From Clostridia bacterium (GTDB lineage: Bacteria > Bacillota > Peptococcia > DRI-13 > PHAD01), in the NCBI GenBank assembly GCA_034003745.1, contig JAVEYA010000002.1, forward strand, positions 308-64,307: a DNA stretch of 64,000 nt, written 5' to 3'. The notes under the pieces are model-generated. The model ran no database searches. It had not been told where the DNA came from and saw nothing but the letters and a program-made list of their open reading frames with translations. The first letter of the stretch is position 1. The number at the start of each line of letters is the position of its first letter. The position numbers and the translations under genes were made by a program. This document shows, piece by piece, positions 3,189-64,000 of the stretch.

Positions 3189-3189
<1 letters not shown>
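2185..3189 (+). CDS. RND efflux periplasmic adaptor (HlyD/MFP family) lipoprotein
   Basis: Track ORF 2104..3189. ATG 2185 follows GGGAGGG. Lipobox-like LAAGC, coiled-coil segment, TSPINGVI barrel motif. Stop overlaps the next start (TAATG). Confidence 0.85.
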
Positions 3190-6345
<3,156 letters not shown>

Positions 6346-6353
<8 letters not shown>

Positions 6354-10035: not shown

Positions 10036-11244
10036 ATGGCGGAAAAAATAACCGTGCAAGACGGCAGGCTGGCTGTGCCGGATCATCCCATTATCCCCTA
10101 TATCGAAGGCGACGGCACCGGTCCGGATATCTGGCGCGCCTCCCAGGCAGTCATCGAAGCCGCGGTGGAAAAAGCCTATGGCGGTAAAAGAAAGATAGAA
10201 TGGCTGGAAATCCTGGCCGGAGAGAAATCCTTTAACCTGAACGGTTCCTGGCTGCCCGCAGAAACGGTGGAAGCTATCCGGGAATACATTGTAGCCATCA
10301 AGGGCCCGCTGACCACCCCGGTGGGCGGCGGTATCCGCAGCATCAATGTGACCCTGCGCCAGCTCCTGGACTTATATGCCTGCGTACGCCCGGTCAAGTG
10401 GATTCAGGGAGTGCCCAGTCCGCTGGTCAATCCCCAGTGGGTCGACGTTATTATTTTCCGTGAAAATAACGAAGATATTTATGTAGGCATTGAATGGGAA
10501 AGAGGCAGTAACGAGGCCCGAAAAGTGGCGGATTTCCTGCGGACACAGATGTCCTGTGAGATTCCCGACGACGCCGGCATCGGCATCAAATATATGGGAC
10601 AGCGCGCCTCCGAGCGTATCATGCGCAAGGCCATGCGCTACGCCGTAGAGAATCACAAGCAGAAAGTTACGATTGTCCATAAGGGCAACATTATGAAATA
10701 TACTGAAGGCGCTTATAAGAAGTGGTGCTATGATCTGGCAAAGAAAGAGTTTGCCGACGTCATCATCCTGGAAGACGAACTGGCTCAGCATGGCGGCGGG
10801 ATTCCGGCCGGGAAAATTCTGGTCAATGACCGCATCGCCGACAACATGTTCCAGCAGCTGATTATCCGCAGCAACGAATATGAGGTGCTGGTCTGCCCCA
10901 ATTTGAACGGGGACTATATTTCCGACGCTGCCGCCGCTTTGGTGGGCGGGCTGGGGATGGCCCCGGGGGCGAACATTTCCGATCATCTGGCCCTCTTTGA
11001 GGCCACCCACGGGACAGCGCCCAAATATGCGGGAATGGACAAGGTCAACCCCGGCTCGTTTTTGCTTTCGGCCGTGATGATGCTCGAATATATCGGCTGG
11101 AAGGAAGCGGCCGCGCTGATTGAAAAAGGACTGGGGCAGGCTGTGCTGGATAAGCAGGTCACCTACGACCTGGCCCGGCAGCTCGAAGGCGCCCGGGAGC
11201 TGAAAAGCTCCGAATTTGCCCAGGCACTCATCGCGAGAATGTAA
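10036..11244 (+). CDS. icd: isocitrate dehydrogenase (NADP-type homodimeric)
   Basis: [47 protein letters not shown]. Confidence 0.92.
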
Positions 11245-14313: not shown

Positions 14314-14976
14314 ATGTCTGAAAAGAAAATAAGATTAGTTCTTGTTGACGACCACCATCTGGTCAGGGAAGGACTCCGCAAGATTCTGGAGCTGGAAAAA
14401 GAATTCGAAATTATTGATGAAGCCGGCGACGGGCAAGGGGCCATCAATATCGTCCGGGTACATAGACCCGACGTGGTCCTCATGGACATCAATATGCCCG
14501 GAACCAACGGTATTGAGGCCACCCGGGTCATCAAAAGGGAACTGCCGCAGGTAGGCGTCATTGCCCTGACTATCCACGAAGAAGAGGAGTATGTCCTGGA
14601 ACTGGTAAGGGCGGGGGTGTCGGGCTATGTTTTAAAGGATATCGCGCCGGCCAAGCTGGTGGAAACCATCAAAACCGTCGCCAACGGTCACTCCATTATC
14701 GATCCCAGTATCACCAATAAGCTCTTTGGGGAAATCAGCCGCCTGGGTAATCGCAACCGGCGCATCAAAGAGGATTGGGAAACGCTGACCGACCGGGAAA
14801 TGGACGTCTTAAACCTCATCTCCCGGGGCCAAAGCAACAAGGAAATTGCCCGTAGCCTGACTATCAGCGAAAAAACGGTCAAGAACCATATCACCAATAT
14901 CTTCAGAAAGCTGCAGGTCGATGACCGCACCCAGGCGGTGCTTTTTGCCATTAAACACCGTCTGGTGGAAGTCTAA
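14314..14976 (+). CDS. degU: DegU-like response regulator (REC + LuxR HTH)
   Basis: Track ORF 14296..14976. ATG 14314 lies 8 nt after GGAGG. LVDDH, DVVLMDINMPG, LTDREMDVLNLISRGQSNKEIA. Confidence 0.85.
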   Translation: MSEKKIRLVLVDDHHLVREGLRKILELEKEFEIIDEAGDGQGAINIVRVHRPDVVLMDINMPGTNGIEATRVIKRELPQVGVIALTIHEEEEYVLELVRAGVSGYVLKDIAPAKLVETIKTVANGHSIIDPSITNKLFGEISRLGNRNRRIKEDWETLTDREMDVLNLISRGQSNKEIARSLTISEKTVKNHITNIFRKLQVDDRTQAVLFAIKHRLVEV

Positions 14977-14982
14977 TATATT

Positions 14983-15013
14983 TGTCATTCTGAACGCAGT
15001 GAAGAATGACAGG
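14983..15013 (+). repeat. TGTCATTCTGAG/GAAGAATC palindromic repeat, copy 1 (single arm closed as hairpin)
   Basis: TGTCATTCTGAACGCAGTGAAGAATGACAGG, with 7-bp stem GTCATTC/GAATGAC. Starts 7 nt after the degU-like stop. Confidence 0.8.
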
Positions 15014-15090
15014 AGTCGCCGAACCGCCCCCTTGTCCCGCTTTATCCTCTGTGCTCACTGCCCCCGCTCGCGCATATAGTATAGTATGAT

Positions 15091-15519
15091 ATGCGAAGCG
15101 GGGGATTTATTTTGGCATTGCTCATGCTGGCAGCGATAAATCTGGGCCTGATCATCTATGGGATACGGCGGATTTTGGAAGAACGCCGGGGTTCCGGCCT
15201 GCCCGCTTTCTTTATTCTTCTCGCCGAAGAAGACGATTATCTGGAAGGGATGCTGCGTTTTCTGGTAGGACAAATGAAACAGGAAGAAATCGCCAATCCG
15301 CTGATCGTCACCTATGAACTTTCCGGGTATCAGAGCAAGGCAATTGCCGATCGATGCGCCCGGGATTTGTCATTTATTGCCTGGGAAATACAAAAAGGGG
15401 AGAATGCGGAGCCATCCGGGCCCAATCTGTTGGATTTACGGGAACGGGGGACCCGGCAAGAGAAGCTATGCTTGATCAAGCTGTTCCTGCGCCGCCAAAA
15501 ATACCTTACCGCAACATAA
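15091..15519 (+). CDS. hypothetical single-TM protein (142 aa)
   Basis: Track ORF. N-terminal hydrophobic helix and GC-rich codon usage. No motif recognised. The start codon sits inside the hairpin at 15059-15104. Confidence 0.45.
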   Translation: MRSGGFILALLMLAAINLGLIIYGIRRILEERRGSGLPAFFILLAEEDDYLEGMLRFLVGQMKQEEIANPLIVTYELSGYQSKAIADRCARDLSFIAWEIQKGENAEPSGPNLLDLRERGTRQEKLCLIKLFLRRQKYLTAT

Positions 15520-15520
15520 C

Positions 15521-15602
15521 TGTCATTCTGAGATAGCGCAGCTATCGAAGAATCTGGCTTTTACAGCAATAGAAAGATCCTTCATTACATTCTTAAATGA
15601 CA
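15521..15602 (+). repeat. palindromic repeat, copy 2 (full, right arm degenerate)
   Basis: TGTCATTCTGAGATAGCGCAGCTATCGAAGAATC...GATCCTTC...AAATGACA. Starts 2 nt after the stop of ORF 15091..15519. Confidence 0.7.
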
Positions 15603-15754
15603 TGTTCCGAGACTGTGGTCTTAGGACGAATGACTGCCAAAAACAGGCGTGCAGCCCGATGGTGAGCCCGGGGCGGCATGCTTTACAATTTAAGCACAAT
15701 GGACGAGCTATCTATTATTGACGAGTACCCAGACCGGCTAAGGAGAGATGGGAA

Positions 15755-15931
15755 ATGGATAAATTCATAAAACAATTGTTGATTGAAGAAAAAGGGCAGG
15801 GCATGGTTGAATACGGGCTCATTATTACCCTGATCTCCTTGGCGGCAGTTTCTGTCATGGGGACAGTGGGAGAAAGATTACTCGAAATGTTTACCGATAT
15901 AGGCACTGAACTGCAAACCCACCTGCCTTAA
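15755..15931 (+). CDS. flp: Flp/Fap family pilin 1 (58 aa, not in ORF track)
   Basis: Hand translation: MDKFIKQLLIEEKGQGMVEYGLIITLISLAAVSVMG... Flp processing motif G/xxxxEY plus a hydrophobic helix. AAGGAGAG lies 7 nt upstream. Confidence 0.8.
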   Translation: MDKFIKQLLIEEKGQGMVEYGLIITLISLAAVSVMGTVGERLLEMFTDIGTELQTHLP

Positions 15932-16230
15932 AAAGCAAGAAAACATGGGACAGGGGGACAGGTCCCTTGTCCCCCCCACGCTATGAAGAAACAAGGAAAT
16001 GGTTTTTGTTGAACACAACAGAAGTCATTTCCTTTTTCTATTCCAGAGTATCTAAGACCAGGGTCTCTTATTTATTGGGATTTATCTCCACGGTTAAAGT
16101 TAGGACGATTTTCTGGAAAAAACAGGATTGCAGACGGATGTTCGAAGATTGCAACAGGCCTTACAATATGAACTACAACGGCTAGCTGTCAATTATCCAG
16201 CATATACAAATTTGTAAAGGAGAGATGAAA

Positions 16231-16413
16231 ATGTTAAAACTCATGAAAAACTTGTTAACCGAAGAAAAAGGACAAGGTCTGGCTGAATACGGTCTCATCC
16301 TGGCGCTGATTTCCTTGGCGGCGATAGCGACGATGGGCCCGCTGGGAACACAAATAAAAACCATTTTTGACAACGTCCGAGTCGAGTTGGGCGGCACTCC
16401 TACCCCCCCGTAA
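16231..16413 (+). CDS. flp: Flp/Fap family pilin 2
   Basis: Track ORF 16225..16413. EEKGQGLAEYGLILALISLAAIA. The second ATG (16231) has proper spacing to AAGGAGAG. Confidence 0.85.
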   Translation: MLKLMKNLLTEEKGQGLAEYGLILALISLAAIATMGPLGTQIKTIFDNVRVELGGTPTPP

Positions 16414-16441
16414 AAAGAAACAGGAATAAAAGGGTAATCAA

Positions 16442-16479
16442 CGGCCCTGCTTAAGGATACTTACGCAGGGCCGCTTTTT
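16442..16479 (+). terminator. rho-independent terminator/attenuator after pilin genes
   Basis: CGGCCCTGC-loop-GCAGGGCCG followed by CTTTTT. Confidence 0.65.
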
Positions 16480-16512
16480 ACCAAGAACCTTAATAATAAA
16501 CAAGAAAAGGGA

Positions 16513-17034
16513 GTGATTTTCTTGTTGCTGATAGATTATCTCCTGCTGCTGGTACTGGCAGTTTCCATCTATACCGATATCCGAGAGCAGAAAATCTATA
16601 ACATCGTGCTTTTCCCGGCTTTCCTTCTGGCCTGGGCTTTTCATTTCCGGACGGGCGGAGGGACGGGCCTCCTCACCTCTCTTCACGGCGCAGGCTTAGG
16701 GTTGGGTTTGTTCTTAATTCCCTATGTCGCCGGCGGATTGGGAGCGGGTGATGTGAAGCTTTTGGCCCTGGTGGGGGCCTGCAAAGGGAGCGCGTTCGTT
16801 TTTACGGCCTTTTTCCTGACCGCTTTGCTGGGCGGAATAATCGCCCTGGCGCTCCTCATTTATCGCGGAGAATTATTGAAAGTATGGGTCCGCCTGAAAG
16901 ACGCCCTGATCGTTTGTATTTTTTCAAGCTTTAAGGTTTGGAATCTAGGCAGTCTGAAGGATGCGGGCAGCGTTAGTTTCCCCTATGGCGTGGCCATTGC
17001 CCTAGGCTCCATGATAACTTACGTGGTGATGTGA
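16513..17034 (+). CDS. cpaA: A24 prepilin peptidase (CpaA/TadV)
   Basis: Polytopic membrane protein with GAGDVKLLALVG motif. The true start may be in-frame TTG 16522, 8 nt after AAGGGAG. Confidence 0.8.
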   Translation: MIFLLLIDYLLLLVLAVSIYTDIREQKIYNIVLFPAFLLAWAFHFRTGGGTGLLTSLHGAGLGLGLFLIPYVAGGLGAGDVKLLALVGACKGSAFVFTAFFLTALLGGIIALALLIYRGELLKVWVRLKDALIVCIFSSFKVWNLGSLKDAGSVSFPYGVAIALGSMITYVVM

Positions 17035-17035
17035 A

Positions 17036-17431
17036 ATGCTGCGGAAATTTTGTCGGGAGAAAAAAGGACAGGGCCTGGTGGAAATGGCTTTGGTTATTCC
17101 TATCCTCCTGATGCTGGTCTTCGGCATTATCGAATTCGGCCGGATTTTCGGCGCCGACCTGGTGGTTAAATATAGCGCGCGGGAAGGGGCCCGGATTGGA
17201 GCCGTCGGCGGTACGGACGCCAATATCCGTTCCCAGATTCGCGACTCGGCTGTCAGCCTGGACCCGGACAAGCTGACTATTACGATTTCTCCGGGGGAAG
17301 CGGCGAGGACGCGGGGCCGGCAAGTCAGCGTGCAGGTTGCCTATCCTCTGGAGATCATGATGCCCCTTTTACCCATGGTGACCGGAGACACGCTTACCGT
17401 GCGCACCACCTGTGTGATGCGGGTAGAATAG
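17036..17431 (+). CDS. tadE: TadE-like pseudopilin/assembly protein
   Basis: N-terminus EKKGQGLVEMALVIPILLMLVFGIIEFGR, typical of the TadE family. The start abuts the cpaA stop. Confidence 0.75.
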   Translation: MLRKFCREKKGQGLVEMALVIPILLMLVFGIIEFGRIFGADLVVKYSAREGARIGAVGGTDANIRSQIRDSAVSLDPDKLTITISPGEAARTRGRQVSVQVAYPLEIMMPLLPMVTGDTLTVRTTCVMRVE

Positions 17432-55540: not shown

Positions 55541-55598
55541 GCAGGAAATAACTGTTATTCGTCGAAATATAGCAACATCAAGAAAAATGGAGGTAAAC

Positions 55599-55787
55599 AT
55601 GGGAGGGAAAGCTTTCGAGAAGAAGAACCTCGAACAGATTGAATTTCTCCGTTATGACTTGTACAAGCAGGTAAACAATAAAAGAGAAATGCTTTGTTCC
55701 AAGGAAGTGTATGAAGTCAGTAAGCGTCTGGACCAGCTGATTATCAAGCACATGTCTTCTCAGTCCGGGAAAGATCCGCAGCAATAG
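55599..55787 (+). CDS. Spo0E-like aspartyl-phosphate phosphatase
   Basis: IEFLRYDLYKQV...EVYEVSKRLDQLI pattern of the Spo0E family. ATG 55599 follows GGAGGT (track start 55587 overlaps the SD). Confidence 0.65.
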   Translation: MGGKAFEKKNLEQIEFLRYDLYKQVNNKREMLCSKEVYEVSKRLDQLIIKHMSSQSGKDPQQ

Positions 55788-55887: not shown

Positions 55888-56751
55888 ATGCGTAAATACA
55901 TAACAGGCATCATAATTATAGTGTGTGTATTCTTTCTGGCACTGGCGGCCGGACAGGCCACAGGCCTTTCTGTGACGCAGCTGTTTGCCGGAGAACAGGA
56001 AGGCTCTGCGGATGCCGTTGAGAATATGGATAATGTTGCTGAGCCTGCTGAGCCGGATTTACCCGAACCCCCGACGGAGCCGGAAGTGGAAATGCCGCCC
56101 GAATACCCGCAGGGGCTTGCCTATGAGGATGTATTGGCCCTGATTAAGGAGCCCAATAAGAAAATGACGGAGAACCCCGACGCCATCCTGGCGCTGGTCA
56201 ATAAAAACAATAACCTGGCGGCTGATTACGTTCCGGTCGGGATGGTTGAGCCCGCGGTGCCCTTTTCTTTCCAGAACGCCGATGAGAAACGCCTGATGCG
56301 GCCGGAGGCGGCGCAGGCCCTGGAGGAATTGTTTGCCGCCGCGACGGAAGCGGGGCATCAATTGGCCGCGGTTTCCGGTTTCCGCTCCTATGGGCGGCAG
56401 AAGTCCATTTTCTTGAATAATGTGCAGAAAAGCGGTTTCGAGCGGGCCAATTTCTTTTCCGCCCTGCCCGGACAAAGCGAGCACCAGACCGGCCTGGCCA
56501 TGGACGTCAGTTCCGCGGCGGTGGGCTATAAGCTGGTGACGAATTTCGGAGAGACGCCGGAGGGAAGCTGGCTGAACGATAATGCTCATATTTTCGGCTT
56601 TATTATCCGGTACCCGCAGGATAAGACCGACCTCACCGGCTACCAGTATGAACCCTGGCATCTCCGCTTCGTGGGTGTGGACGCGGCCGCGGAAATAAAT
56701 GCCCGGGGCTGGGTGCTGGAAGAATATCTGGCGGATTTGAACCAGACCTGA
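55888..56751 (+). CDS. VanY/M15B D-alanyl-D-alanine carboxypeptidase-like
   Basis: Signal/anchor N-terminus. SGFRSYGRQ, SEHQTGLAMD, EPWHLRFVG zinc-peptidase motifs. Confidence 0.85.
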   Translation: MRKYITGIIIIVCVFFLALAAGQATGLSVTQLFAGEQEGSADAVENMDNVAEPAEPDLPEPPTEPEVEMPPEYPQGLAYEDVLALIKEPNKKMTENPDAILALVNKNNNLAADYVPVGMVEPAVPFSFQNADEKRLMRPEAAQALEELFAAATEAGHQLAAVSGFRSYGRQKSIFLNNVQKSGFERANFFSALPGQSEHQTGLAMDVSSAAVGYKLVTNFGETPEGSWLNDNAHIFGFIIRYPQDKTDLTGYQYEPWHLRFVGVDAAAEINARGWVLEEYLADLNQT

Positions 56752-56886: not shown

Positions 56887-56914
56887 AATGGTAGTACCAA
56901 AGAAAGAGGAAAAA

Positions 56915-57730
56915 ATGAATAGGGAATTCAAACTGGGGATGTTCTCCTGGTTCGGCTATATCCTACCGCTGCCGGAACGTCTCCGTTTAATTCAGCAAGC
57001 AGGCTTTGCGTCCATTTCTCTGTGGTGGGAAGATGAGTATACGCCGGCGCTGATAAAAAAAGAGCATTTTGCCGCTCTGGTCCGGGAGGCCGGGCTTTTC
57101 TTCGAGAATATCCACGCGCCTTTTATAAATACCAATGATTTGTGGAGCGCCGATAAGGCAGCGCGGGAGAAGGCGGTGCAGCAGTATTTGACCTGGCTGG
57201 AGGACTGCGCCCAATATGCTATACCGCTCCTGGTCATGCACCTGACCGAAGGAGACGAACCGCCGGAGGCCAATAAATACGGACTGGAGAGCATGATGGC
57301 GTTGGTTCGTGGAGCGGAAGAACGCAGCGTAAAAATCGCCGTTGAAAATACCCGGCGCACCAACCATGTTTCTTTTGTGCTGAACGAGATTCCCTCGGAT
57401 TATTTAGGCTTATGCTATGACAGCTCTCACGCCCGGTTATGCCCGGATAGGGGGGAGACCCTGCTGAACCGGTTCGGCCAACGGTTGTTGGCGACGCATT
57501 TGTCGGATAATGACGGCAAAGAGGACAGACATTGGGTTCCAGGAAATGGAATAATTAACTGGAATTCTTTGATGAATAAGTTTATAATGAATAATTACAC
57601 AGGGTACTTAACTTTGGAAGTTGCGGCGGACCCGGAAGAACGCAAAGGACCGCCGGAAGTCTTCGTCCAGAAAGCGTTTCAAAGATTGACCGGAATCCGG
57701 CAGGCTAACCCGGCCGATCGGTCAAAGTAA
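56915..57730 (+). CDS. sugar phosphate isomerase/epimerase (xylose-isomerase-like TIM barrel)
   Basis: Track ORF 56756..57730 trimmed to ATG 56915, because the upstream part reads through the repeat and the promoter. AVENT and CYDSSHA metal-site-like motifs. Confidence 0.78.
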   Translation: MNREFKLGMFSWFGYILPLPERLRLIQQAGFASISLWWEDEYTPALIKKEHFAALVREAGLFFENIHAPFINTNDLWSADKAAREKAVQQYLTWLEDCAQYAIPLLVMHLTEGDEPPEANKYGLESMMALVRGAEERSVKIAVENTRRTNHVSFVLNEIPSDYLGLCYDSSHARLCPDRGETLLNRFGQRLLATHLSDNDGKEDRHWVPGNGIINWNSLMNKFIMNNYTGYLTLEVAADPEERKGPPEVFVQKAFQRLTGIRQANPADRSK

Positions 57731-57803
57731 AAAATACAATTGAATAGCAGTAGGAATTGTCAGAAGCGTAACACAGCAATTCGACGCTTATCACAATTCC
57801 GTA

Positions 57804-57957
57804 AGGCAACAGGTGCTCGTCAGAGATAATAGGGAACCGGGTGAGAGTCCCGGACGGACGCGCCGCTGTAAATGGGGAGGGCTTTTCCAAGGACCACTGG
57901 AGCAATCCGGGAAGGGGAAAAGACCGCTGATCCTAAGTCAGAAAACCTGCCTGTCGC
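57804..57957 (+). promoter_or_regulatory. cobalamin (B12) riboswitch aptamer
   Basis: AATAGGGAACCGGGTGAGAGTCCCGG, GCCGCTGTAA, CCACTGG...GGGAAGG and the B12 box AAGTCAGAAAACCTGCC. P1 pairs GGCAACAGG (57804-57812) with CCTGTCGCC (57949-57957). Confidence 0.85.
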
Positions 57958-58021
57958 CGGAGTGTATTTAACCTTCGCGAGAGAGGGGGAACGCTGATGT
58001 CCTACATTTGGGTAAAAGCAT

Positions 58022-58058
58022 GGCCTTAGTTTCTCGTCACGAGGAACTAAGGCTTTTT
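58022..58058 (+). terminator. riboswitch expression-platform terminator
   Basis: GGCCTTAGTTTCTCG-TCA-CGAGGAACTAAGGC followed by TTTTTT, about 50 nt before the ATG. Confidence 0.75.
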
Positions 58059-58108
58059 TACTGACGGACACTAAGAGAAAACAATTGAAAACAGGGGGTA
58101 AAAGTAAG

Positions 58109-61100
58109 ATGAATTTGTTTACCTTGAGAAAAAGCCGTGGGCTGTTGGCAGGATTGTTGCTGATGACCCTGTTGGCGACAATGATATTTCCCGGCGCAGT
58201 CTTGGCGGCCGAACCTTACGATACGTATAACAATTTAGCTCTGCAGGCGGTACGCAACAATTACGGATTGTACCAGGGCGGAACTCCTGTTACTTCCAGT
58301 CATTATACAAACTTTGGCGCTTATGGCGCTTATGTGCTGGACAAAGCCGGTATCAACCTGACGGAATGGGCTCATGAAGGGACGAGCTTTGCCGATAGTA
58401 TATCTGCCCTGATAGATGAAACGATAGCTGGTCCATCTTCCGCTAACCGTGTGGCTTATGAATATTTAGCGGCTAAGGAAATGGGAGACAGTAGAGCAGA
58501 CTCCTTACTGGTTATTCTGACTAACAGACAGACTACCCGCGGAGATGGCTCTTTTGACGATAATATTTATAGCAATATGCCCGCATTTGACGCCTTAGCC
58601 CGGACCGGGGATATCGCCGAACTTGATACGGCGGCAGCTATAATATATCTCTTGGGAACTCAGGATGATGCCAGTGGAGCGTGGGGTTCACCCGGATATC
58701 CGGATATTGCCGTAACAGCCCAGGCGGTGCGGGCCTTGCTGGCTTTAGAACCTCTGGCCGGGGGGGACGCCCTTAGCGTTCAGACAGCTATCGGTAATGG
58801 TGTGAGTTGGTTGCAAAGTTGTCAGCAGGATGACGGCAGCTTTTCTGCCCCGAGTTGGGACCCGCTGATTGATACTGTGGAAGCCCTGCTGACGATGAAG
58901 GCTTTGGGTTTGTCGCTGGATACCTGGAAAGAAGGTGGCAAGAGCGCCGTTGATTACATGCGGGACGATGCGTTAAATGATGATGGTACGTTTGGCGGCA
59001 GCGGCAACCTATATGATAACACTATGGCCCTGGAAGCATACCTGCTTTTGGACGCTGCCATACCGGAAGATAAGACCTTGGCTTTAACCATTTCACCCAA
59101 GACAGTGGATTTGGCGATCGATGAAGAGCAGGCTTTTACTGCTGAAGCCTTTTTAGCCAATGGTTCAAAAAAGGATGTGACCAGTGACGCTGATTGGGCT
59201 GTAAGTGATCCGGCTATTGCAGAATTGACGGAGGATGGGGACAGCGTTACAGTTGGCCGTATGATTGCCGGTGATTTCCAGGTTACGGCTGCTTATCAGG
59301 GGCTCAGCGCCGCGGTTTCTGTAGGGCTTGCTGCAGACCCTAGTCTGGCTGGGGTAACGGTTAGAATTGAGGGACCGAATTATACTATTCTGCCTGATAC
59401 AGTTATTTATGCTCCGCCTGGCTCCAGTTATACTCAGGTACTGGTGGCCGGCGCAGATGATAATGACTATACTGTGGATGAGACCGGAGGGTTCGTAAAT
59501 GCCATTAACGGAATAGGGGCTCCCGTTTATTGGCTGGTAGCTCCTTGGCAAAGCAGCGGCTATAATAATGGTGATTGGTTTACGATGTCGGCTAACGGGT
59601 CCTCCAATACCGGCGTAGCGGTATTATCTGCTTCTGCAAGGCAACCTGGTGAATCCATCACCGTGACCGTAACCTATAAAGACAATGAAGATATGAGCGG
59701 CGACCCGGTTGCGGGGGATACAGCAGATGGTATGCCGGTGGAGGGAGCTAAGGTAATCTATTATACGGCGGCAAATTACCAAACTCCTACGGAAGCAGGG
59801 ATTACGGATGCCAATGGGCAGTTAACCTTTTCTATCGGAACCGCCGGAACCTATTATGTGGCCGCGGATAAGACAAACACGGGTGTTTGGCCGGATCCAG
59901 ACGATGGTCTAGTCAGAACGGCAGCCCAGACAGTTGTGGTCAGCAGCGGAGGCGGACATACGTCCGGGACTCCCGTCCGTATTGAGGTCGTTGGAAAAAA
60001 TGGGAAGACCTTGTATGCCCGACGTACCGTTTATTTGGAAGGTGAGGATTACAGAAATGCCAGGGGAGATAAAATTGGCTTAAGTCCGGTGGAGGCGCTG
60101 GATAAAACGGGTCTGAGCTACGACTACGATTCCATCAGCTATATTCATACGATTGCCGGACTGGCGCCGGAGGGTCTGAACGGCTGGATGGTCAAAGTCA
60201 ATGGGACTTCATTGAAAGATGCGGCATATAAAGAAAAATTATCCTCCAATGACCTGGTCGTCTGGTTCTACAGCACCGATTCGGGCAATCTCGCCGGTAT
60301 GAGTGGTCCGAATCCCCAGCAGAATAAGACCGGCGATCAGTTGATCACGGATGCGCTGAAAGATAATAAAGAAGTCGTCATTGATCTGGCAAAACAGGCC
60401 AACGGTTTGTTGCAACTAAAGCCGGAAACGGTACAAAAACTGGCGGAGGCGCAAAAGCCCCTGAATATAAGCGGTAAGGGACTGGAAATAGCCATGACGC
60501 CGCAAGCCCTGGGTACTGAACAAGTCCAGGCCGCTTTAGAGGGGGGCGCTGCTGCTTTGCAGCTTGGCATCAAAGAAGTCACTTCCGCGGAAAAACAGGA
60601 AATCCTGACCGGCGCTAAGCTGGGCCAGTCCACCGGCATTTTCGAGATTGGCGGCAAGATTTTCGACCTCTCTGCTGAACTGATCAGCACAGACAGCGAG
60701 GGCAATCAGATAACAGAAAGAATCAGCAGTTTCGGCGAACCGGTTCCGGTGACCTTAGACCTGTCCGGGCTGAATCTGACGGGGGAAGATAGTGCTCAGC
60801 TGACGGCGGTACGCTATGAAAAAGACGCCGCGGGGAAGATCATTCCGGTAAAATTAGGCGGAAGTTATGATCCTGAAACAAAGGTATTCACCTTCTATAC
60901 GGAGAAGTTCAGCTATTACGGTATTGCCAAAGCAGAGAAATTGGTGACGGTGAGCATGGGTATCGACAAGCTGACTGTCACGATTAACGGTAAGCGGGGC
61001 TATACCGATGCCCCCCCTGTCTTACTGAATAACCGCACCATGGCGCCCCTGCGCTTTATCGCCGAGACCCTGGGCGCCCAGGTACAATGGCTGGCGGAGA

Positions 61101-61291
61101 GCCGGACGGCGGAAATCAGGTTGGATGGACAGACCCTGCGGCTGGTGGCGGAGGAACTTGTACCGGGAATGGATACGCCTGCCACCATCAAAAGCGCGCG
61201 CCTACTCGTACCGTTACGCTATATCTCCGAAGCCCTGGGAGCCAGGGTAACCTGGTTCGCGGCTGAACAACGCATCGAGCTGGTGTACTGA
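58109..61291 (+). CDS. secreted multidomain protein: prenyltransferase-like alpha/alpha repeats + Big_2 + 2x DUF4430 + CarboxypepD_reg-like + Cu-amine-oxidase-N-like C-terminus
   Basis: ATG 58109 lies 9 nt after AGGGGGT. Signal peptide ends ...AVLA/AEPY. Repeats of the QDDxGxW/F type occur four times. Ig-like segment at ~59080-59340. DUF4430 signatures (VRIE..G...GWMVKVNG...DLVVWFY) at ~59355-59600 and ~59970-60275. C-terminal LNNRTMAPLRFIAETLGAQVQW / LLVPLRYISEALGARVTW repeats. Confidence 0.85.
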   Translation: MNLFTLRKSRGLLAGLLLMTLLATMIFPGAVLAAEPYDTYNNLALQAVRNNYGLYQGGTPVTSSHYTNFGAYGAYVLDKAGINLTEWAHEGTSFADSISALIDETIAGPSSANRVAYEYLAAKEMGDSRADSLLVILTNRQTTRGDGSFDDNIYSNMPAFDALARTGDIAELDTAAAIIYLLGTQDDASGAWGSPGYPDIAVTAQAVRALLALEPLAGGDALSVQTAIGNGVSWLQSCQQDDGSFSAPSWDPLIDTVEALLTMKALGLSLDTWKEGGKSAVDYMRDDALNDDGTFGGSGNLYDNTMALEAYLLLDAAIPEDKTLALTISPKTVDLAIDEEQAFTAEAFLANGSKKDVTSDADWAVSDPAIAELTEDGDSVTVGRMIAGDFQVTAAYQGLSAAVSVGLAADPSLAGVTVRIEGPNYTILPDTVIYAPPGSSYTQVLVAGADDNDYTVDETGGFVNAINGIGAPVYWLVAPWQSSGYNNGDWFTMSANGSSNTGVAVLSASARQPGESITVTVTYKDNEDMSGDPVAGDTADGMPVEGAKVIYYTAANYQTPTEAGITDANGQLTFSIGTAGTYYVAADKTNTGVWPDPDDGLVRTAAQTVVVSSGGGHTSGTPVRIEVVGKNGKTLYARRTVYLEGEDYRNARGDKIGLSPVEALDKTGLSYDYDSISYIHTIAGLAPEGLNGWMVKVNGTSLKDAAYKEKLSSNDLVVWFYSTDSGNLAGMSGPNPQQNKTGDQLITDALKDNKEVVIDLAKQANGLLQLKPETVQKLAEAQKPLNISGKGLEIAMTPQALGTEQVQAALEGGAAALQLGIKEVTSAEKQEILTGAKLGQSTGIFEIGGKIFDLSAELISTDSEGNQITERISSFGEPVPVTLDLSGLNLTGEDSAQLTAVRYEKDAAGKIIPVKLGGSYDPETKVFTFYTEKFSYYGIAKAEKLVTVSMGIDKLTVTINGKRGYTDAPPVLLNNRTMAPLRFIAETLGAQVQWLAESRTAEIRLDGQTLRLVAEELVPGMDTPATIKSARLLVPLRYISEALGARVTWFAAEQRIELVY

Positions 61292-61325: not shown

Positions 61326-62294
61326 ATGAGAAAATTTATTTTTCCATTATTACTAAGTATTTTGCTGCTTGTTCCTGCCTGCGGAGGGGAGGGGGGAAGC
61401 AACCCCGCCTCCCCCGCGGTTGGAAACATTACCTATCTGATTACGCAAAATTACGGCGCTGAGACGGTGCTGGAAGAGGCGGTATCCTATCAGCCTGACC
61501 GAAGCGTAATGGAGGGCCTCTTTGCCACAAAAGCTGAAGTGGAGACTGCTTACGGCGGTGACTTCGTCAGCGTCATCAACGGACTCAGCACGCAGAACAG
61601 CGGTCTCACCGGGGAGAGATACGACTGGTTCTATTATGTCAATGGGATTTTTGCCGACGTCGGCGCGCTGGATTATCTGCTCCTGCCCGGGGATCAGATC
61701 TGGTGGGATTATCATCCCTGGAAAGTTTCCCAGGGGACGCCCGCTGTCGTCGGCTGTTGGCCGGAGCCTTTTTTGCATGGTTTCCGGGGCAAGGTGAAGG
61801 AGACGGTTGTTTTGCCTGTACCCTCCATGGCGGAGCAGGGCAAGAAACTGCAAGCTGCTCTGCAGGAACTGGGCGTCCAATCTACGGCTGTACGGGAGCT
61901 GGATGGAACGTCGGCGGAAGAATTGGGAGCAAGGAAGGGTCCCATTATCGCGGTGGGGGCCTGGCCCGAACTGGCCCGGTATAAGTGGCTGGCGGAATTC
62001 AATGAAGCCTGGCGGCGCAACGGCACATTCCTGCATTTCAGCGCGGACGGCCTGGAATTACTGGACCACAGCGGGCAAGTGGTTAGGACTGTTCAAGGTT
62101 CGGCCGGCGTAATCATGGCCACTGCCGAGGGGAACGGGGACGACAGTCCTTTGTGGATAGTTACGGGCAGCGACGCGCAGGGGACGGCAGCTGCCCTGGA
62201 TATATTAATCGAGCAGCCGGAGAAAATAAAGGCGGCCTACAGTATCGTCATCCTGCCGGATGAGGTTATGAAGCTGCCGGCAATGAGGGAATAG
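61326..62294 (+). CDS. DUF4430 (transcobalamin-beta-like) lipoprotein
   Basis: Lipobox LLVPAC. YDWFYYVNGIFADVGALDYLLLPGDQIWWDYHPW signature. Confidence 0.8.
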   Translation: MRKFIFPLLLSILLLVPACGGEGGSNPASPAVGNITYLITQNYGAETVLEEAVSYQPDRSVMEGLFATKAEVETAYGGDFVSVINGLSTQNSGLTGERYDWFYYVNGIFADVGALDYLLLPGDQIWWDYHPWKVSQGTPAVVGCWPEPFLHGFRGKVKETVVLPVPSMAEQGKKLQAALQELGVQSTAVRELDGTSAEELGARKGPIIAVGAWPELARYKWLAEFNEAWRRNGTFLHFSADGLELLDHSGQVVRTVQGSAGVIMATAEGNGDDSPLWIVTGSDAQGTAAALDILIEQPEKIKAAYSIVILPDEVMKLPAMRE

Positions 62295-62301
62295 CAAAGG
62301 C

Positions 62302-63216
62302 ATGTACGCTTACCAAGAAAAAAATACGCTCTTTCAAAGCCTGCGTACGGAAGTGGCCTTGCTTTACGTAGCCATTCTGGTCTTCCTTGCGCTCTTTTTC
62401 TCGCATCCTTTGTTTTTACTGGCTTTATTGCTTGCGCTGAATGTAGTAATCTTTTCGGCGGGAATTATGCGGGAATGGCTGGTTTACCTGAAATTCACCC
62501 TGCTTTTGACGGCGTTGATTATTCTGGTTAATACGCTGTTCGTACAGGAAGGGGCGACGGTGCTCTTGCGCAGCCCGCGGCTTCCGCTTATCGGCACGGT
62601 CCGCATTACCTGGGAAGCGTTGTGCTTTGGCGTAGGGATGGGCCTGCGGCTCGTCGTGATGACCGGTGCGTTTTGCCTGTTGACGTATGCCGTACATCCC
62701 GACCGCATCCTGCAGACATTGGGCGGAGGCAACAGCAAAATCCTGCTGACATTGAGTATTTCCATACGCCTGCTGCCGCTGGCGGCCGCCGACTTTACGC
62801 GGATTACGGAAGCACAGCGCTGCCGGGGCGTCAATTTTCAGGTCCGGGGCCTGGACGCCAAAATTAGAAAATATATTCCGGTTTTCAATACCGTTTTGCT
62901 GTCCAGTTTGGAACGTTCTTTTCAGTTGGCGGAGTCGCTGCAGTCCAGGGGCTACGGGGCCGGACGCAGAACTTTCCTGCGCGAATCCTTGTGGCGTATC
63001 CGGGATTACCTGGTGCTGGCGGCGCTGCTTTTAGCCGTAGTCTATGCGGTACTGTTGTTCTTCACAGGCTGGGGTGTCTACAGCTACTATCCCCGGCTGC
63101 AGCCGGTTACCGGGGAGGAAATGATTCTGGCTGCCGGGCTGGCGCTGTTTTTCCTGTTTCCGGCAATCTTGAATTGGGGGTGGGTCCGTTGGCGCTTCTT
63201 GAGATTGAAAATCTGA
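62302..63216 (+). CDS. ecfT: ECF transporter transmembrane (T) component, CbiQ family
   Basis: Polytopic. Two coupling-helix motifs of the AxxxRG type (EAQRCRG, ESLQSRGY). Confidence 0.85.
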   Translation: MYAYQEKNTLFQSLRTEVALLYVAILVFLALFFSHPLFLLALLLALNVVIFSAGIMREWLVYLKFTLLLTALIILVNTLFVQEGATVLLRSPRLPLIGTVRITWEALCFGVGMGLRLVVMTGAFCLLTYAVHPDRILQTLGGGNSKILLTLSISIRLLPLAAADFTRITEAQRCRGVNFQVRGLDAKIRKYIPVFNTVLLSSLERSFQLAESLQSRGYGAGRRTFLRESLWRIRDYLVLAALLLAVVYAVLLFFTGWGVYSYYPRLQPVTGEEMILAAGLALFFLFPAILNWGWVRWRFLRLKI

Positions 63217-64000
63217 CGTATCATTACCCGGATGAAAACCGGTCCGCCCTTGACCGAATCAATCTGACGGTCCAAGAAGGAGAATTTATACTGCTGGCCG
63301 GCGGTTCCGGCAGCGGCAAATCCTCGCTGGTACGGGCCATGGCCGGACTTATCCCGGACTTCTACGGCGGAAAAATCGCCGGAGCCGTCAGGTTGGACGG
63401 CATGGATATCAAAGCCCTGGCGCGTTCTGAGGTGGTGCGGAAAGTCGGCATGGTCTTTCAGGACCCGGAAAGTCAGCTGGTAATGACCACCGTGGAGCAG
63501 GAGCTGGCTTTCGGCATGGAGAATCTGGGCCTTGCTCCGGAACTGATGAAACGGCGCATCATGGAAGTTTCCGGGGCGCTTTCCCTGCACGGGTATTTAC
63601 AGGAAAACATTCCCCGGCTTTCCGGGGGACTGAAGCAGAAAACGCTGCTGGCTTCCATCCTGGCCATGCAGCCGGAGATTTTAATTCTGGATGAGCCCAC
63701 TTCACAGCTGGACCCGGTAGCCGGGGAAGAAATTCTCACAGTGGTACGCCGGCTAAATGAGGATAACGGGATTACGGTAATCCTGATTGAACAGCGGTTG
63801 GAGCGCTGCTTCCACCTGGCGGACCGTATCGTCGTCATGTCGGAGGGCCGTATTATTCATGACAGCCCGGACCGCGCCGCCGCAGCCGCCTGGGCTGTGG
63901 CTAAGGACAGTCCTTTTTTGCCGCCGCTGGCCCGGCTGTTTGCGGCCACCGGCATACAACCCCTCCCGCTGACGGTGAAAGAAGGCCGTAAAGCGCTGAA
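63189..64000 (+). CDS. ecfA: ECF/ABC ATPase (A) component, 5' partial (runs off window)
   Basis: Hand translation LEIENLTYHYP...GGSGSGKSS (Walker A)...LSGGLKQK...ILILDEPTSQLD. Start is TTG 63189 (8 nt after GGGGG) or GTG 63180. Not in the track because no stop occurs before the window end. Confidence 0.85.
   Translation, partial: MALLEIENLTYHYPDENRSALDRINLTVQEGEFILLAGGSGSGKSSLVRAMAGLIPDFYGGKIAGAVRLDGMDIKALARSEVVRKVGMVFQDPESQLVMTTVEQELAFGMENLGLAPELMKRRIMEVSGALSLHGYLQENIPRLSGGLKQKTLLASILAMQPEILILDEPTSQLDPVAGEEILTVVRRLNEDNGITVILIEQRLERCFHLADRIVVMSEGRIIHDSPDRAAAAAWAVAKDSPFLPPLARLFAATGIQPLPLTVKEGRKAL

Follow-up and report, generated by a model that had tools for sequence, protein, structure and literature searches.

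Eukaryotic transcobalamin, intrinsic factor and haptocorrin combine an alpha6/alpha6-type toroid with a beta-grasp SLBB domain in one secreted, soluble protein of about 400 residues. Surface corrinoid binders encoded together with a transporter are known from Bacteroides, where several of them, BtuG, BtuH and BtuJ, act ahead of BtuB (PMC6143338, PMC8941943, PMC13616437). These are diderm outer-membrane lipoproteins that serve a TonB/BtuB-dependent importer; BtuG is a beta-propeller, the folds are unrelated to those described below, and the shared logic is an analogy only. Cobamide capture by Gram-positive wall-associated binders was described as uncharacterised in a 2026 review (PMC13616437), which fits the statement in a preliminary description of the present DNA that such a protein has not been characterised in Bacillota.

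The idea that a toroid and an SLBB domain scavenge B12 together has been in print since 2007, when Burroughs, Balaji, Iyer and Aravind (Biol Direct 2:4; PMC1796856) independently reached the same prediction from domains and gene neighbourhoods. Their purely computational work described proteins of low-GC Gram-positives in which a signal peptide and an N-terminal toroid accompany an SLBB domain (Desulfotomaculum example), some with further Ig domains (Moorella example), from operons that encode another SLBB paralogue and have CbiO/CbiQ as neighbours (PMC1796856). The 1060-aa protein studied here fits this description point by point. New relative to 2007 are the riboswitch, a CbrT-like S component, a second toroid protein, the exchange of Cu_amine_oxidN1 for SLH modules, a conserved 220-aa module and a degenerate extra SLBB module.

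Two ECF systems are also close. ECF-CbrT (CbrTUV) of Lactobacillus delbrueckii (Santos et al. 2018, PDB 6FNP) imports cobalamin and cobinamide, is not inhibited by hemin, and is active in liposomes and E. coli without accessory proteins (PMC5997447). In Lactobacillus sakei, lsa1836-1840 (Verplaetse et al.) encode ECF S, A and T components, the toroid protein Lsa1840 and the transcobalamin-beta-like protein Lsa1839 in one transcription unit linked by experiment to heme uptake, and the toroid and beta proteins were proposed to assemble and capture a tetrapyrrole outside the cell (bioRxiv 10.1101/864751).

The gene analyzed here lies in a 64,000-nucleotide stretch of a Clostridia bacterium contig (the window). 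Its ORF (58109-61291, + strand, 1060 aa) is given with the same length by public gene callers, and its ATG at 58109 follows a GGGGG ribosome-binding site at a distance of 10 nt. Translation could alternatively begin at an in-frame TTG (58085). The leader and the N-terminus contain the following features:

57794..57968, + strand: cobalamin riboswitch aptamer (RF00174, Rfam cmscan)
58022..58060, + strand: intrinsic terminator, riboswitch expression platform (stem 58022-58054)
58109..58207, + strand: start codon and Sec-type signal peptide, residues 1-33 (predicted cleavage between VLA and AE)

The aptamer covers the full model and, at 107.2 bits (E 7e-26), exceeds the gathering score of 31.5. 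Between it and the start codon lies the terminator, a 15-bp stem (7 G-C pairs) closed by a loop of 3 nt and followed by TTTTT, which makes the expression platform one of transcription attenuation. With both elements directly upstream of the ORF, the riboswitch control claimed in the preliminary description is well founded, and the co-occurrence with B12 riboswitches that it proposed to check extends to relatives: the riboswitch heads the operon in 7/7 metagenomic relatives, upstream and on the same strand, and is likewise found upstream on the same strand in 47 of 50 evaluable genome loci (within 700 nt in 29 of these). All relatives carrying riboswitch and operon are anaerobic Bacillota. The N-terminus shows, by inspection of the sequence, a basic segment that leads into a hydrophobic core and then VLA before AE, in an n-h-c pattern resembling a Sec-type signal peptide, as had been noted; the AlphaFold2 model has a helix at 7-26 followed by a disordered stretch.

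The large gene is the first cistron of a tightly packed six-gene operon that extends past the window end. This operon context was missing from the preliminary description. The next three genes begin within the window:

61326..62294, + strand: second gene, 322-aa probable lipoprotein (LVPAC) with a DUF4430/SLBB domain (PF14478, E 3e-15)
62302..63216, + strand: third gene, CbiQ-like ECF T component (Pfam CbiQ, E 5e-15; TIGR02454 below cut-off)
63189..64000, + strand: fourth gene, fused A-A' ECF ATPase, cut by the window end

The lipoprotein and the large protein have distantly paralogous SLBB domains, which share 29% identity across 92 aa. The fourth gene, with ABC_tran and ECF_ATPase_1 matches (2e-63), encodes 573 aa on the full contig (L001, 10706-12427). 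Beyond it lie a 446-aa toroid and Cu_amine_oxidN1 protein and then a 236-aa S component, whose sole PDB match is CbrT of ECF-CbrT (6FNP_A, E 3e-10). As in ECF-CbrT, the S component is accompanied by T and A components; here T and A are dedicated and operon-encoded, the two ATPases are fused, and there are three extracytoplasmic toroid/SLBB proteins, a type that does not figure in the ECF-CbrT system as characterised (PMC5997447). Among 55 genome loci, many of them truncated contigs, 39-51 contain the various components of the operon, including an SLBB-type ORF (51/55) and a CbiQ-like T component (42/55).

The cobalamin riboswitch implies the substrate class of the importer. A different possibility is import of heme or another non-corrin tetrapyrrole, with toroid and SLBB binding heme as proposed for L. 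sakei. The two operons are alike by description, and heme was docked at the modelled Lsa1840/Lsa1839 interface (bioRxiv 10.1101/864751), but that toroid/SLBB-heme interaction consists of docking into homology models. In L. sakei the toroid and beta proteins are separate and small, whereas here the modules are also fused in a large protein under a B12 riboswitch, a sensor without an obvious reason to control heme import in this operon or in the relatives that share it. The S component matches CbrT, with its hemin-insensitive transport, and relatives have CbiZ, CbiMN, BtuR and MetE as neighbours, all with riboswitches of their own. Heme import is therefore very unlikely in our assessment, and a corrinoid is the favoured ligand.

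The mature protein begins with a toroid:

58208..59074, + strand: alpha/alpha toroid, residues 34-322, with four QW-like repeats (AlphaFold2, profile, Foldseek)

The toroid repeats reported earlier were recovered as four QW-like repeats (RGDGSF 145-150, QDDASGAW 186-193, QQDDGSF 239-245 and NDDGTF 290-295), and AlphaFold2 predicts a true toroid of 12 helices across residues 36-313 with pLDDT about 95. Pfam Prenyltrans and SQHop_cyclase_C gave sub-threshold matches only, while the family profile matches squalene-hopene cyclase (3e-7), RabGGTase beta and the C4 TED; 117 cluster representatives among 1.84 billion carry the toroid at E<=1e-30. Among the toroids matched by Foldseek, haptocorrin ranked first (4kki, E 7e-4; intrinsic factor 3kq4, E 1.8e-3), but terpene cyclases, RabGGTase beta and C3d resemble the domain about equally well, and GH88/GH105 (alpha/alpha)6 glycoside hydrolases score similarly. 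Pfam Cobalamin_bind (PF01122) had no match on the toroid, and its profile did not resemble that of the transcobalamin alpha domain in hhalign (probability 0.4%). The toroid is real, but its resemblance to transcobalamin does not exceed that to terpene cyclases or prenyltransferases. Of the two halves of a transcobalamin-like fold that were proposed, only the beta half has specific support, from the Foldseek matches of the SLBB domain.

The sequence similarities to squalene-hopene cyclase, RabGGTase beta and C4 TED repeats, together with the match of the 446-aa toroid protein to drimenyl diphosphate synthase (9e-15), could point to an extracellular enzyme of terpene-cyclase-like or prenyltransferase-like type, or to a thioester (TED-like) domain. 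However, where cyclases have DxDDTA, the aligned position reads D-I-A-V-T-A in the 1060-aa protein and D-F-x-T-T-A across the family, without the acidic residues at the centre of the motif. The toroid alignment of the family also contains no invariant Cys or His, which leaves neither a prenyltransferase Zn site nor a CGEQ thioester. The toroid therefore has neither the catalytic residues of terpene cyclases and prenyltransferases nor a thioester, and a secreted protein is remote from isoprenoid diphosphate substrates. We consider an enzymatic or thioester role extremely improbable.

The transcobalamin-like beta domain lies further downstream:

59969..60298, + strand: SLBB/DUF4430 (transcobalamin-like beta) domain, residues 621-730 (Pfam, Foldseek)

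It corresponds to the second, clearer DUF4430 of the preliminary description and passes the Pfam threshold (PF14478, residues 663-722, 40.2 bits against a cut-off of 23.8). The domain is modelled with pLDDT about 90 and has a G-W-M-x-x-x-N motif with invariant G692, W693, M694 and N698. The suggested comparison with transcobalamin and intrinsic factor structures was productive here: the best solved Foldseek matches are the beta domains of transcobalamin (7qbg/2bb5), haptocorrin (4kki) and intrinsic factor (2pmv). The isolated beta domain 5np4 aligned with target TM 0.66 and rmsd 2.8 A, and the DUF4430 structure 3u7z with target TM 0.75.

Three modules separate the toroid from this domain:

59075..59344, + strand: Big_2 Ig-like domain, residues 323-412 (phmmer, Foldseek)
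59345..59623, + strand: degenerate SLBB/DUF4430-like module, residues 413-505, first part of a clade-specific insert
59624..59968, + strand: beta-sandwich, residues 506-620, second part of the insert (sub-threshold Pfam, model)

The Big_2 assignment holds by sequence and structure, with matches to LigA/LigB Ig domains (LigA 8gyr, E 4e-6, phmmer against PDB) and a Foldseek list headed by the Big_2 matches 8gyr and 2mog (target TM 0.77); Big_2 is found in most family members. What had been called a first DUF4430-like segment is real by hhalign, as residues 413-505 match the N-terminal two thirds of the family SLBB profile (96.3%, E 1.5e-9; each of three control modules below 1%) and the transcobalamin beta domain (72%, E 3e-5). 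It is also degenerate, with no match in a Pfam search of these residues and AlphaFold2 pLDDT <40, and occurs in about 7 cluster representatives. The label CarboxypepD_reg-like, given to about residues 538-591, is retained only as a generic beta-sandwich: residues 538-591 have sub-threshold Pfam matches to DUF4198, Big_1 and SdrD_B, and the AlphaFold2 model has strands at 490-587 with pLDDT 50-80.

Because Big_2 and the 200-aa insert part toroid and SLBB, which are adjacent in the transcobalamin family, a transcobalamin-type sandwich within one chain is only hypothetical; some 300 residues lie between the two, whose relative geometry the model leaves unfixed (pTM 0.45). The toroid:SLBB ratio also varies widely in the family, from 1 to 5 toroids per one SLBB with additional toroid-only proteins, which is at odds with a simple 1:1 sandwich. 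It is conceivable that only the SLBB domains bind corrinoid and that the toroid has another role, for example recognition of cell-wall or S-layer glycans or of some other hydrophobic ligand, which would make the protein a spacer or scaffold instead of a transcobalamin-type sandwich. This would accord with the spacing, with toroid numbers uncoupled from SLBB numbers (including toroid-only SLH proteins), with a toroid having no specific link to the transcobalamin alpha domain and with the glycoside hydrolase scores. On the other hand, toroid and SLBB almost always occur together in a protein or operon (51/55 loci), about 20 cluster representatives have the two side by side as transcobalamin does, only a glycine linker joins them in relative P0002, and haptocorrin heads the toroid matches. 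We regard binding by SLBB alone as unlikely and favour participation of both modules in corrinoid binding.

Two modules complete the protein:

60299..60958, + strand: conserved 220-aa module, residues 731-950 (pLDDT, family architectures)
60959..61291, + strand: Cu_amine_oxidN1 ('stalk') pair, residues 951-1060, and stop codon

The region of about 230 residues left unassigned earlier proved to be a conserved, confidently folded module (pLDDT about 87) of an alpha/beta subdomain and a beta-sandwich, which follows the SLBB domain in most family architectures. Its similarity to ZU5 is weak (ankyrin ZU5, Foldseek E 0.03-0.05), and relative P0011 has a Pfam ZU5 match (E 1e-3). The C-terminal copper-amine-oxidase-N-like pair was recovered as PF07833 (residues 958-1057, E 1.4e-33). 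Relatives have three SLH repeats at this position, and PF07833 proteins are present in the D. reducens surfaceome (PMC4137172), so we infer that the pair is a probable wall or surface attachment module. In contrast to the soluble transcobalamin family, the 1060-aa protein, with its extra Ig, sandwich, 220-aa and anchor modules, is thus probably surface-attached, and its cobalamin binding is a prediction.

Taken with the riboswitch conservation, the CbrT-like ECF operon and the SLBB structural matches, the predicted extracellular corrinoid capture under B12 control is reinforced, and we consider it probable that surface capture feeds a dedicated CbrT-type ECF importer. One relative adds to this by having CbiZ, a cobinamide salvage gene, placed between riboswitch and large gene. 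Low intracellular cobalamin would let transcription bypass the leader terminator and proceed into the operon. The 1060-aa product would be exported by Sec and held on the cell envelope by the Cu_amine_oxidN1 pair (SLH in relatives), displaying the toroid and one intact and one degenerate transcobalamin-type SLBB on Ig-like spacers. Toroid and SLBB modules could then serve as the surface binding site for cobalamin or other corrinoids, either within one chain or jointly with the separate toroid protein and the SLBB lipoprotein, and the CbrT-like S component may take over the corrinoid for ATP-driven import.

Alternatively, the protein could serve as a surface sink or store for corrinoid, in competition with neighbours or as a supply buffer, without feeding the adjacent transporter. 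ECF-CbrT functions without accessory proteins, multi-toroid arrays suggest high-capacity binding, and one subclade (L008, L015) has the riboswitch and large gene with no transporter within 8-10 kb. Most loci, however, pack the large gene and importer into one tight operon, and induction under B12 limitation fits acquisition, making storage quite improbable next to capture for import.

The gene under study encodes a secreted protein of 1060 amino acids (the large protein, window 58109-61291). The ORF proposed in the preliminary description is real, and public gene calls agree on a 1060-aa product (MDX9870910.1), for which "MAG: stalk domain-containing protein [Clostridia bacterium]" is the sole annotation. 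The ORF listing gave a TTG-started version at 58085..61291; a ribosome-binding site, GGGGG, lies 10 nt before the ATG at 58109. NCBIfam holds no model for this protein and none for the 322-aa lipoprotein encoded in the same operon. A search of the whole large protein against PDB sequences returned only Big_2 and weak prenyltransferase matches, none of them to transcobalamin. The riboswitch said to precede the gene was found, together with a terminator:

57794-57968, same strand as the ORF: cobalamin riboswitch RF00174, full-length Rfam match, 107.2 bits against a gathering score of 31.5
58022-58054, between the aptamer and the ORF: intrinsic terminator, a 15-bp hairpin and a T run

With an intrinsic terminator placed between an aptamer above the gathering score and the ORF, the leader sequence points to probable control by transcription attenuation.

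Window positions 1-57730 are occupied by housekeeping genes, among them those for aconitase, isocitrate dehydrogenase, an OadA-like carboxylase, SecA, UvrB, UvrA and UvrC, flagellar FlgK, flagellin, FliD and a Cof-type hydrolase. The others listed for this stretch are:

3189-6353: AcrB-type RND pump
55587-55787: small Spo0E-like ORF
55888-56751: VanY carboxypeptidase
56906-57730: xylose-isomerase-like TIM-barrel protein

No B12 biosynthesis genes were identified among the window ORFs scanned, which is uninformative on B12 synthesis by the organism.

The window stops within an ATPase gene, and the continuation of the same contig (L001) was recovered by the exact sequence of the large protein. 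The large gene is the first of a tightly packed operon on L001, followed by genes for a 322-aa DUF4430 lipoprotein, a CbiQ-like T component, a fused A-A' ATPase, a 446-aa toroid protein and a 236-aa S component. The part of the operon past window position 64000 is as follows:

L001 10706-14457: 573-aa fused A-A' ECF ATPase, 446-aa protein with toroid and Cu_amine_oxidN1, 236-aa CbrT-like S component
L001 13747-14457, beyond the 64-kb window: the S component, matching 6FNP_A at E 3e-10 over 166 residues

6FNP chain A was the sole match of the S component among PDB sequences. It belongs to ECF-CbrT, a characterised importer of B12 and cobinamide that is not inhibited by hemin; the complementation host in that work was E. 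coli lacking btuF, metE and btuC (PMC5997447). With a CbrT-homologous S component, a T component and an A component, the operon encodes a predicted ECF transporter of the CbrT type. Heme as the substrate, as in the L. sakei reading, is disfavoured here by the cobalamin riboswitch that controls the operon and by the CbrT-like nature of the S component. The 446-aa toroid protein matches Prenyltrans (5e-15) and, in the PDB, drimenyl diphosphate synthase (9e-15). The two toroids of the operon are distant paralogues with 25% identity, and so are its two SLBB domains (29%). Unrelated CoA-transferase genes lie downstream of the operon on L001.

The likeness of the large protein to transcobalamin is clearest in its SLBB domain. 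Residues 663-722 match DUF4430 (PF14478) at 40.2 bits against a cut-off of 23.8 (E 4.6e-10), where the clearer of two such segments had been placed. The domain, residues 621-727, is confident in the full-length AlphaFold2 model, and a second model covering residues 621-950 has a pLDDT of 83. The top 15 PDB matches of the latter in Foldseek were transcobalamin (7qbg/2bb5/4zrp), its isolated beta domain, haptocorrin and 3U7Z; intrinsic factor ranked lower. Target TM was 0.66 for the isolated beta domain 5np4/5no0 (rmsd 2.8 A, 109 columns) and 0.75 for the DUF4430 structure 3U7Z. The SLBB model has a beta-grasp fold and can be superposed on the beta domain of transcobalamin. By hhalign, the similarity to a shallow mammalian profile of this beta domain was weak (9.6%, E 3e-3).

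Custom HMMs showed that residues 413-620 are an insert common to the relative P0003 and a few other cluster representatives. Within it, residues 413-505 aligned with the family SLBB profile at 96% hhalign probability (E 1.5e-9) over the N-terminal two thirds only, with three control modules all below 1%, and with the shallow mammalian transcobalamin beta-domain profile at 72%. This segment has no copy of the invariant GWMxxVNG motif, no Pfam match and a pLDDT below 40, and the stretch 409-489 is poorly modelled in the full-length model. The partial-length profile match suggests that 413-505 is a degenerate SLBB module; an initial assignment of a first DUF4430-like segment here would thus be right in kind, for a copy without the diagnostic features.

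The toroid is less easily tied to B12 carriers. The full-length model, built with 24 family sequences, has a mean pLDDT of 79 and a pTM of 0.45, which gives no usable inter-domain geometry. Residues 36-313 form 12 helices at a pLDDT of about 95, the alpha6/alpha6 toroid fold of a transcobalamin-type alpha domain. Haptocorrin 4KKI (E 7e-4) and intrinsic factor 3KQ4 (E 1.8e-3) were among the best Foldseek matches in the PDB, with similar scores for drimenyl diphosphate synthases, MstE, squalene-hopene cyclase, RabGGTase beta, C3d and GH88/GH105 barrels (target TM 0.35-0.52). The likeness of the modelled toroid to haptocorrin and intrinsic factor is not specific, since much the same scores are obtained with terpene cyclases, RabGGTase beta and C3d. 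Cobalamin_bind (PF01122) had no match in the large protein at E<=0.1, and the toroid profile retrieved no transcobalamin, intrinsic factor or haptocorrin from PDB sequences. hhalign gave 0.4% against a transcobalamin alpha-domain profile seeded with human TCN2 (identical to 7QBF_A), which is shallow, since its 91 sequences are all mammalian and more than 70% identical. The proposal that both halves of a transcobalamin-like fold are present therefore holds for the beta fold and for a generic toroid fold; it fails on the profile link of the alpha domain and on adjacency, as Big_2 and a 208-residue insert lie between toroid and SLBB. The suggested comparison with transcobalamin and intrinsic factor structures likewise gave clean top matches for the SLBB domain and unspecific ones for the toroid. 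In P0002 and similar relatives, the toroid, a glycine linker and the SLBB domain follow directly in series.

Sub-threshold Pfam matches to Prenyltrans (18 bits against a cut-off of 26.5 on the toroid), SQHop_cyclase_C, Big_2, Big_1 and DUF4198 fall at the positions where the preliminary description had placed modules, and TED_complement matches occur on the relatives P0007 and P0010. Enzymatic readings of the toroid were rejected on the absence of catalytic motifs. For a class II terpene cyclase, the position of DxDD(TA) reads D199-I-A-V-T-A, with a family consensus of D-F-x-T-T-A. For a prenyltransferase beta subunit or TED domain, the toroid alignment has no invariant or near-invariant Cys or His, and neither the Zn-binding Asp/Cys/His triad nor a CGEQ thioester is present in it.

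Of the remaining modules, Big_2 was found as described: it matches Leptospira Lig Ig domains (E 4e-6, PDB sequence search), coincides with the sub-threshold Pfam match and is modelled as a sandwich at 323-407. A beta-sandwich at 490-587 has moderate model confidence, and an alpha/beta plus beta module at 739-950 is confidently modelled. The latter corresponds to a conserved feature:

60299-60958 (residues 731-950): conserved 220-aa module of confident fold, after SLBB, with the C-terminal end ...FTFYTEKFSYYGI

Only weak ZU5-like matches to this module were obtained with Foldseek, and one relative has a Pfam ZU5 match at 1e-3. The C-terminal Cu_amine_oxidN1 pair is firmly identified at 958-1057 (PF07833, E 1e-33, 115.6 bits against 24.2) and is also seen in the full-length model. 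In relatives, SLH triplets hold this C-terminal position, and PF07833 proteins are present in the surfaceome of D. reducens (Desulfotomaculum) (PMC4137172); these two findings suggest that Cu_amine_oxidN1 may attach the large protein to the envelope.

When the toroid profile was run exhaustively with HMMER, 117 cluster representatives out of 1.84 billion were matched at E<=1e-30, and the family size rests on this search; a word-indexed search with the toroid alignment added only 10 proteins. Several architectures recur. One is toroid, Big_2, SLBB and 220-aa module, ending in Cu_amine_oxidN1 or SLH; the others have toroid and SLBB directly joined, toroids only (including SLH proteins of about 540 aa) or arrays of toroids; P0007, P0010, P0058, P0060 and others carry 2 to 5 toroids, often each with a Big_2, and one SLBB. 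A simple 1:1 sandwich of the transcobalamin type does not fit these arrays and toroid-only proteins. A live alternative is that the SLBB domain binds the corrinoid and the toroid does something else; it is sustained by the varying ratio of the two modules, by the 300 residues that separate them here and by the missing profile link between the toroid and the transcobalamin alpha domain.

The regulatory context is conserved across the family. A cobalamin riboswitch heads the transcription unit in all seven metagenomic relatives, and six of them share the ECF operon. Among species-representative genomes, 55 loci were found, all in anaerobic Bacillota: Peptococcaceae, Syntrophomonas, Desulfofundulus, Moorella/Neomoorella, Thermincola, Geosporobacter and Thermosediminibacter. 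Cultured hosts include Geosporobacter ferrireducens and species of Desulfofundulus, Neomoorella and Thermosediminibacter. Of the 50 loci with enough upstream sequence, 47 have a riboswitch upstream on the same strand, as detected by a covariance model built from 12 riboswitches; the distance is at most 700 nt in 29. Counts across the 55 loci, many of them on incomplete contigs, were 51 for SLBB ORFs, 45 for the ATPase, 42 for the T component and 39 for a CbrT-like S component.

Given these regulatory elements and folds, the genes of the operon and their conservation, the best-supported reading is that the system captures corrinoid, the probable ligand, outside the cell for an ECF-CbrT importer and is induced at limiting B12. 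Upon B12 limitation the operon would be induced and the large protein would capture corrinoid outside the cell, perhaps through cooperation of toroid and SLBB; the corrinoid would then pass to the lipoprotein and S component for import of the ECF-CbrT type. The observations of the preliminary description are confirmed, and its interpretation as a transcobalamin-like surface corrinoid-capture protein is partly supported. A broader joint reading, which we consider rather doubtful, is that monoderm anaerobes pass corrinoid across the wall through a relay of several proteins. It would lead from a distal wall-anchored giant to ECF-CbrT by way of another wall-anchored protein with a toroid and of a lipoprotein in the membrane, and toroid and SLBB modules on different proteins would close round the corrinoid between chains. 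Arrays of 2 to 5 toroids would be multivalent traps, and the bacterial modules would be the source of animal transcobalamin, intrinsic factor and haptocorrin.

Proteins of this kind were predicted by Burroughs et al. 2007 (PMC1796856), who reported that bacterial SLBB domains occur as fusions with an N-terminal toroid in Desulfotomaculum and with Ig domains in Moorella, noted a further SLBB paralogue within the operon and neighbouring CbiO/CbiQ genes, and proposed a role in scavenging B12. The large protein is a member with the same elements. Our analysis quantifies the riboswitch control across the family and adds a CbrT-like S component, a second protein with a toroid, the exchange of anchor modules, a 220-aa module that is conserved, and a putative degenerate extra SLBB module. 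Earlier and better-placed examples exist, and the window locus adds little beyond one more case from an uncultured Clostridia MAG. No B12-binding characterisation of any family member was found in the literature searched, and the extracellular capture of cobamides in Gram-positive bacteria is described as entirely uncharacterised in a 2026 review (PMC13616437). Capture of scarce corrinoids before membrane transport is an acknowledged gap in these bacteria, for which this family offers concrete candidates that are B12-regulated and transporter-linked. Corrinoid binding, if shown, would put three matters to the test: whether animal B12 carriers arose from bacterial proteins like these, as proposed in 2007; whether toroid/SLBB-ECF operons, whose substrate is disputed, serve B12 or heme; and whether Bacillota possess a counterpart of the Bacteroides BtuG/H/J relay.

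Several relatives' loci show further features. The window has one cobalamin riboswitch; tandem copies occur in the toroid/SLBB operon leaders of L017, L028, L033, L035 and the following:

L011 9227-9437 and 9540-9718: tandem riboswitches
L016 290-469 and 515-691: tandem riboswitches
L034 8835-9116 and 9277-9554: tandem riboswitches
L007 6472-6663 and 6789-6974: tandem riboswitches

At L007 (393-7813), from a Dehalobacterium MAG, the toroid-SLBB gene is separated from its tandem riboswitches by a CbiZ gene. More riboswitches are found there upstream of a Pterin_bind gene (805) and of CbiM-CbiN, with a BtuR gene between, and this region is a dense B12 salvage regulon. At L004, a separate cobalamin riboswitch (14541-14729) precedes a gene for a MetE-type B12-independent methionine synthase (14819-17107) directly downstream of the operon. 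In Thermodesulfitimonas autotrophica (L003), a borderline Rfam TwoAYGGAY RNA (11110-11174, 44.7 bits against a gathering score of 43) is located in the 470-nt gap from the large gene to the SLBB lipoprotein gene. In one subclade (L008 7510-10628; L015), the riboswitch and the large toroid-SLBB gene stand by themselves, and no ECF transporter is encoded within 8-10 kb. At L008, a CRISPR array of about 30 repeats (RF01315, 14235-16186) lies beside an IS66-type transposase, some 4 kb downstream of this stand-alone member.
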